DNA from: Escherichia coli
GTDB lineage: Bacteria > Pseudomonadota > Gammaproteobacteria > Enterobacterales > Enterobacteriaceae
Assembly: GCF_003334385.1 (NCBI RefSeq)
Contig: NZ_QOWN01000228.1
DNA: 217 nucleotides
Strand: one strand, 5' to 3'
Made by a program: the position numbers and the translations under genes. Below the pieces are notes generated by a model, which was not told the origin of the DNA, searched no databases, and was given only the letters and a program-made list of their open reading frames with translations. Shown here in pieces: positions 1 through 217 of this stretch; positions within the stretch are counted from its first letter, which is position 1; every line of letters starts with the position of its first letter.

Positions 1-217
1 CCGCGTGTAGAACACCAGGCGGTGCTGGCTGTCGTAGTGGTGGGTCCGCTCGTCGTGCATCCGTATCACCCCTTCCGGGATGCGGTCCGTCTTCTCCGCC
101 AGCCTGCCGTATTCATCGTGGCGGTAGACATAGTGCGCATCTTCCGCGATGCGGTTATCCGGCCATGCCGTGAGCGTGCTGTCCGGGTGCAGTTCCGGGT
201 CCGGCAGCCGGTTTCCT
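1..217 (-). CDS. rhs: Rhs-family / YD-repeat protein, conserved core region (internal fragment, truncated at both window edges)
   Basis: Seen in sequence: minus-strand frame with codons at + 216..1 is open for all 72 codons and translates to [72 protein letters not shown]. The other two minus frames carry stops (TAA at + 155-157, TGA at + 68-70). About 85% of codons end in G/C (61/72). Established knowledge: YD-repeat-like motifs ([19 protein letters not shown]) and overall similarity to enterobacterial Rhs core sequence as recalled. Family-level symbol only; the paralogue (rhsA/B/C/D etc.) cannot be assigned from this fragment. Confidence 0.88.

Follow-up and report, generated by a model that had tools for sequence, protein, structure and literature searches.

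The DNA analyzed here, hereafter the window, is a stretch of 217 nt with a GC content of 64.5%. Two of its six reading frames, plus frame 1 and minus frame 2 (codons on plus-strand coordinates 216 down to 1), are fully open, the latter over 72 of 72 codons. Since dinucleotide-preserving shuffles of the window contain at least one fully open frame in 73% of cases and two in 30%, an open frame alone is little evidence in this sequence. The 72-aa peptide of the minus frame matches the NCBIfam profile NF041261, 'RHS element core protein', with E = 1.3e-43 (149 bits, profile positions 921-994 of 1261). The GC content at the three codon positions of minus frame 2 is 0.69/0.40/0.85, and the third positions of this frame took 28 of the 44 substitutions relative to a 78%-identical copy, 10 of 15 relative to K-12 rhsD, and 6 of 9 relative to a 94% copy. 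The core-profile match, the codon-position GC, and the third-position substitutions identify minus frame 2 as the coding frame. The Rhs assignment of the peptide needed the longer NCBIfam core profile; the short Pfam RHS_repeat model was insufficient, matching residues 29-44 at E = 0.93 only, which is not significant on the window alone.

Plus frame 1 also runs without a stop codon over 72 codons, and if the true gene were on the plus strand, its product would be a small or antisense protein whose coding sequence overlaps that of Rhs. However, its peptide has no NCBIfam match even at E <= 10, and two open frames are what 30% of the shuffles of this GC-rich window would give. Read in plus frame 1, the codon-position GC (0.85/0.40/0.69) reverses the usual order and fits the minus frame, whose third positions take the substitutions. 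No inspected genome record has an annotated plus-strand gene at the site. We reject the plus-strand ORF, which combines the lack of a family match with mirror-image codon statistics and an openness expected by chance, and regard the probability that it is the true gene as negligible. The window gave no Rfam match at E <= 1 on either strand and contains no inverted repeats.

The window supplies 72 codons (1-216, minus strand) from the middle of an Rhs core gene, in the YD-repeat shell region, and these correspond to residues 922-993 of the 1408-aa protein WP_151309019.1. One YD-repeat-like unit was located by pattern match at 100-132 (minus strand, window peptide residues 29-39). A second, YDSQHRL, lies at 16-36 (minus strand, peptide residues 61-67); it was located by pattern match and alignment, and its start is shortened by an in-frame 6-nt deletion, the site of which is at 34-42 (minus strand; also L001 9176-9184). 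The sole DNA repeat in the window is a pair of 15-nt direct repeats at 72-86 and 141-155 (72-155 in all, minus strand), which are 93% identical, lie 69 nt or 23 codons apart, and encode RIPEG and RIAED. This pair reflects the repeat period of about 23 residues in the YD-repeat protein. Judged by its homology to Rhs proteins of solved structure, the window would encode two to three strand-turn units of the YD-repeat shell wall. The window itself carries no toxin, immunity, or regulatory function.

Megablast against 5426 complete E. coli genomes found the window segment in 3652 of them, nearly always in genes named 'RHS element core protein' and usually in several copies each. Matches at 100% identity were confined to three genomes: ETEC1749 and ETEC4085, both from pig faeces in Belgium, and rl0044 from pig faeces in Switzerland. 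Each of them carries the window within one and the same protein, WP_151309019.1, encoded at a shared chromosomal position next to yafV-ivy-fadE; the flanks described here are those of these matching genomes. The identity of the gene, the position of the window in the gene, the domain content, and the locus context are direct observations. The preliminary description of the window had placed it inside a conserved Rhs core, in a gene on the minus strand with its 3' end beyond position 1, and had named two outcomes that would speak against this: no significant Rhs match of the translation, and stop codons just outside the window. Neither was found. The core-profile match is highly significant, and the 1408-aa ORF of the three 100%-match genomes runs through the window with no stops outside it. 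The strand and the direction of the gene are borne out by the coding-frame statistics and by the same genomes.

The full protein scores 2562 bits against NF041261 over residues 1-1255, where the curated equivalog cut-off is 2000. The full gene contains seven stretches of TIGR01643 YD repeats (E = 6.4e-47), and the Rhs-associated core domain TIGR03696 (Rhs_assc_core) covers residues 1178-1255 with 79.6 bits against a cut-off of 32.5. The gene starts about 2.76 kb from the window, on the side opposite to the C-terminal tip. In residues 1-420, Pfam detects DUF6531 (E = 1.6e-19) and RHS repeats, with no PAAR family; residues 1-40 appear PAAR-like by eye only. The closest known proteins are the E. 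coli Rhs core proteins (NF041261), which include RhsA-D of K-12 and the T6SS Rhs effectors linked to vgrG, named 'PAAR-Rhs / Rhs-CT' by Ma et al. 2017 according to the review PMC6730261. The window peptide aligns with the core profile over its whole length, and the window DNA is 91% identical to K-12 rhsD. As in E. coli Rhs elements, the window's gene combines YD repeats, a DPxGL core end, a GC-rich core, and an AT-rich tip with a downstream small ORF, hcp-vgrG linkage, and flanking ISAs1-family (H-repeat-type) elements. Similarity to solved Rhs cocoons (P. aeruginosa Tse5 8cp6, 7q97, Salmonella bongori Rhs 8qja-8qjd, and Tse15 8uy4) extends over residues ~300-1080, which include the window, and again across the core end at residues 1150-1255, although the relationship is distant (E = 1e-116 to 1e-52) and limited to partial stretches. 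No structure of this E. coli Rhs protein was found.

In the exact-allele genomes, the window's gene comes second in a tandem pair of full-length Rhs genes that lies downstream of hcp-vgrG within a T6SS locus. In ETEC1749, the order is T6SS genes tssB to tssH, hcp, vgrG, a first Rhs gene (Rhs-1, WP_235392020.1), a 125-aa ORF, ISEc1, dsORF-h1, the window's gene (Rhs-2), a small ORF, IS66 and ISAs1 elements, and yafV. In strain 720632, the same site holds a single Rhs gene directly after hcp-vgrG. The dsORF-h1 product, whose gene lies between ISEc1 and the 5' end of Rhs-2 (L001 5713-6162), is 149 aa long with a signal-peptide-like N-terminus, and it has no NCBIfam match despite its RefSeq name. 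The vgrG-linked gene Rhs-1 ends in a tip of ~246 aa after the motif PVQRGDPLGL (L001 about 2923-3660), for which Pfam gave no match even at E <= 10, and the 125-aa ORF that follows (L001 3660-4037) has no NCBIfam match. This tip and the 125-aa ORF form a candidate toxin/immunity pair, uncharacterised and more than 5 kb from the window. In ETEC1749, the annotation marks tssF, a T6SS baseplate gene, as carrying a frameshift (L009 11331-13180). The frameshift may be an assembly error in a homopolymer; if it is real, the T6SS that would deliver these Rhs proteins may be non-functional in this strain.

In the exact-match genomes, the core ends with the motif PIRYTDPLGL at residues 1246-1255. The motif starts 756 nt beyond position 1, 252 codons after the last window residue, and is followed by the tip at 786 to 1247 nt beyond position 1 (L001 10004-10465) and by the downstream ORF at 1225 to 1616 nt (L001 10443-10834). 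These distances agree with the preliminary description, which had estimated a couple of hundred codons to the PxxxxDPxGL motif and had located the toxin and immunity genes several hundred bp outside the window. The GC content drops from the core (0.64) to the tip (0.44) and further to the putative immunity ORF (0.33), a composition break that is classic for Rhs genes.

The tip is 153 aa long and matches the Pfam family YkuD (PF03734, L,D-transpeptidase catalytic domain) with E = 3.4e-5, and tip fragments carry the NCBI name 'L,D-transpeptidase family protein'. Relatives of the tip share 31-54% identity, are mostly metagenomic and mostly preceded by a DPxGL Rhs core end, and display a His...GC(T)R signature. 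His96 of the tip (His1351 of the full protein) is invariant in 17 relatives, and Cys118 (Cys1373) is conserved in at least 90% of them, the exception being the most divergent one. A sequence search of the tip against the PDB gave nothing significant, and fold prediction with Foldseek was needed. The AlphaFold model of the tip, built from the alignment of the relatives, has a pLDDT of 81 and a pTM of 0.78. Its top nine PDB matches in Foldseek are all L,D-transpeptidase or L,D-carboxypeptidase folds: Csd6, 5bmq, Bd1075 (two chains), Ldtfm, 1zat, YcbB, 8da2, and Tlde1a. The best E-value is 5.6e-4, with a TM score of about 0.5 and 8-14% identity to the solved enzymes. The Pfam match, the model, and the conserved residues identify the tip as an L,D-transpeptidase-fold domain with His1351 and Cys1373 as catalytic-type residues. 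A query consisting of the window, the tip, and the downstream ORF is covered to at least 80% in 904 of the 5426 genomes, and the pair of tip and ORF is thus common. The tip was also seen in Shigella sonnei and in Salmonella fragments.

A toxin domain of this kind joined to RHS repeats was listed as 'Tox-LD-peptidase' by Zhang et al. 2012 (PMC3482391). The tip of the window's gene shares with this class and with YkuD enzymes the YkuD match, the His...GC(T)R residues, and the predicted fold, and it is likewise carried on RHS repeats with a linked small ORF. As summarized in a review (PMC6730261), Ma et al. 2017 described >400 E. coli PAAR-Rhs proteins and ~2,500 PAAR-Rhs proteins across 143 species, with tips falling into eight clans, one of them a peptidase clan. 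The preliminary description had supposed that any novel toxin or immunity pair would lie outside the window. The location is right; in the exact-allele genomes, however, the pair is not a new one, and its tip belongs to a class already listed for RHS toxins. The window itself contains nothing new, and the toxin/immunity pair linked to it in the matching genomes is of a known class. Tlde1/Tlde1a, the Salmonella T6SS L,D-carboxypeptidase/transpeptidase effector (PMC9638812), is a peptidoglycan-directed protein with a YkuD-related fold. Tlde1a (7uma) ranks ninth among the structural matches of the tip, and this match is weak (E = 0.16, TM 0.45, probability 0.54). Tlde1 is a stand-alone effector, whereas the tip is part of an Rhs protein. 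Membership of the tip in the Tlde1 family is not supported, as phmmer gave no match to the PDB Tlde1a at E <= 10 and the fold match is weak; any relationship between the two is distant.

The downstream ORF encodes 130 aa with a lipobox, VIGC, at residues 20-23. This lipoprotein signal fits a periplasmic immunity protein, and we regard the ORF as the putative immunity gene of the tip. Its product matches Pfam DUF4367 weakly (E = 4.6e-4) and has no NCBIfam match. The immunity families listed with Tox-LD-peptidase are Imm16 and Imm57; the ORF has no Pfam match to either, and its membership in these families is not supported. In ETEC1749 and ETEC4085, a G8-to-G7 change (run near L001 10650) splits the ORF into ORFs of 72 aa and 58 aa, whereas the Swiss strain and strain 720632 have the undivided ORF (compare L002 7449-7841 and L004 10443-10835). 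The split could reflect a true inactivation or phase variation, or else an assembly error in the homopolymer.

The sole difference of the window from the E. coli Rhs core proteins is the two-codon in-frame deletion. One CACTAC unit is left in the window, where the other copies examined have CACTACCACTAC or a diverged equivalent. At the protein level, HYHY is reduced to HY (HHYHYD to HHYD) within a YD repeat; the 78% copy reads QYHY. In an alignment of seven copies, the longer form is kept in all six others, at 78-100% identity, and the 97.3% matches span 223 nt against 217 nt in the window. The deleted form occurs in 3 of the 5426 complete genomes, all of them pig ETEC. A 45-nt pattern across the deletion junction had no exact match in metagenome_contigs and none in genome_contigs, which holds species-representative genomes. 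The dsORF-h1-Rhs haplotype is present in ~124 records at >=99% identity, with only three matches at 100%, and among the matches listed, the near-identical records differ in length by 6 nt. The simplest reading of the deletion is a slipped-strand loss in one pig-ETEC lineage. A non-neutral loss of HY, which would mark a preferred crossover site in Rhs cores or alter the shell and with it, for instance, toxin loading or release in the displaced second copy, seems to us a long shot, as does an allele that is joined to an unseen tip.

The copies closest to the window differ in what follows the core. Rhs-1 of the same genome carries the exact window sequence except for the 6-nt indel, and its tip differs. 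The copy in strain AMSHJX01 differs from the window by the 6-nt indel and one substitution, and it bears yet another tip. With a longer query, matches at <=92% identity end at query positions ~946-970, which is the core/tip boundary. The identity of the tip cannot be read from the core segment, in line with the preliminary description, which had placed the variable toxin end outside the window. The tip can be assigned for the window's allele only because the rare deletion tags this allele. The same observations bear on the possibility that, in the genome from which the window comes, what follows the core segment is not the L,D-transpeptidase-type tip but another, perhaps new, toxin tip with its immunity gene. 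Rhs cores recombine, as the other tips on Rhs-1 and on the AMSHJX01 copy illustrate, and copies at >=95% identity were found in about 1800 genomes, against only about 900 with this tip. On the other hand, the exact deletion allele is found in three genomes only, all of which encode WP_151309019.1 with its YkuD-type tip, and neither the metagenome collection nor that of species-representative genomes contains the deletion junction. We consider a different tip on this allele quite improbable and retain the L,D-transpeptidase-type tip.

The two tandem genes of ETEC1749 share a 504-nt block that is identical except for the deletion (gene nt 2644-3147, L001 8882-9385). The window, at gene nt 2763-2979, lies wholly inside this block, and the matching block in the upstream Rhs gene is around L001 1914-2136. 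Over gene nt 1-3147, Rhs-1 is the same as the single-copy allele found in strain 720632 but for three isolated mismatches. From nt 2644 to the end, Rhs-2 matches the 720632 allele, with the 6-nt deletion and one substitution as the only differences. Judged from these alignments, the 504-nt block looks like the crossover interval of a homologous recombination within the core. The event could have run either way: a second Rhs segment may have been integrated into a single-copy locus, or a deletion between tandem copies may have produced the single copy.

Taken together, we put the probability at about 0.93 that the window is an internal, shell-encoding piece of the conserved core of an E. coli Rhs polymorphic toxin gene on the minus strand, and that the gene of this allele continues, as in the exact-allele genomes, with the core end, an L,D-transpeptidase-fold tip, and a putative immunity ORF. 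Delivery, cleavage, and enzymatic activity are inferred by analogy with characterized systems. The YD-repeat core would fold into a shell that encloses the C-terminal toxin, and the Rhs protein would be mounted on VgrG and delivered by the T6SS spike. The tip would be freed by self-cleavage at the DPxGL motif and may then attack the stem peptides of peptidoglycan in the periplasm of the target, while the lipoprotein encoded by the downstream ORF would protect the producer.

One point against this reading is the arrangement of the locus, in which Rhs-1 and an IS element separate the window's gene from vgrG; its product may not be expressed or loaded. Other points against it are the flanks, which come from three matching genomes, the other tips that follow near-identical core segments elsewhere, the non-significant RHS_repeat match inside the window, the N-terminus without a Pfam PAAR match, the split immunity ORF and frameshifted tssF, and the downstream ORF that matches neither Imm16 nor Imm57. 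The gene could be a decayed or silent Rhs copy, either a pseudogene or a displaced second copy, that is a relic with no working toxin. Its displacement from vgrG by another Rhs gene and ISEc1 would fit such a relic, as would the two codons missing from a YD repeat that is complete in every other copy inspected, the split immunity ORF in two of the three genomes, and the frameshifted tssF of ETEC1749. However, nothing interrupts the 1408-aa frame, whose product exceeds the curated equivalog cut-off, the deletion preserves the frame, and the Swiss strain has an uninterrupted immunity ORF. As for the frameshifts, they fall, or may fall, in homopolymer runs and could be assembly errors. A relic is therefore unlikely in our view, and the preferred reading remains an intact Rhs toxin gene with an L,D-transpeptidase-fold tip.

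Rhs cores occur in two thirds of the complete E. coli genomes and the class of the tip was catalogued in 2012, and the window itself matters little. It is an instance in which an Rhs core was correctly identified, and its position in the gene well estimated, from raw sequence. A search of the accessible published literature found no experimental study, and no biochemical characterisation, of this common E. coli Rhs tip. The rare in-frame deletion tags a small pig-ETEC lineage. With two tandem genes that share a nearly identical core block and carry different tips, the locus is a clean example of Rhs genes as substrates of recombination.
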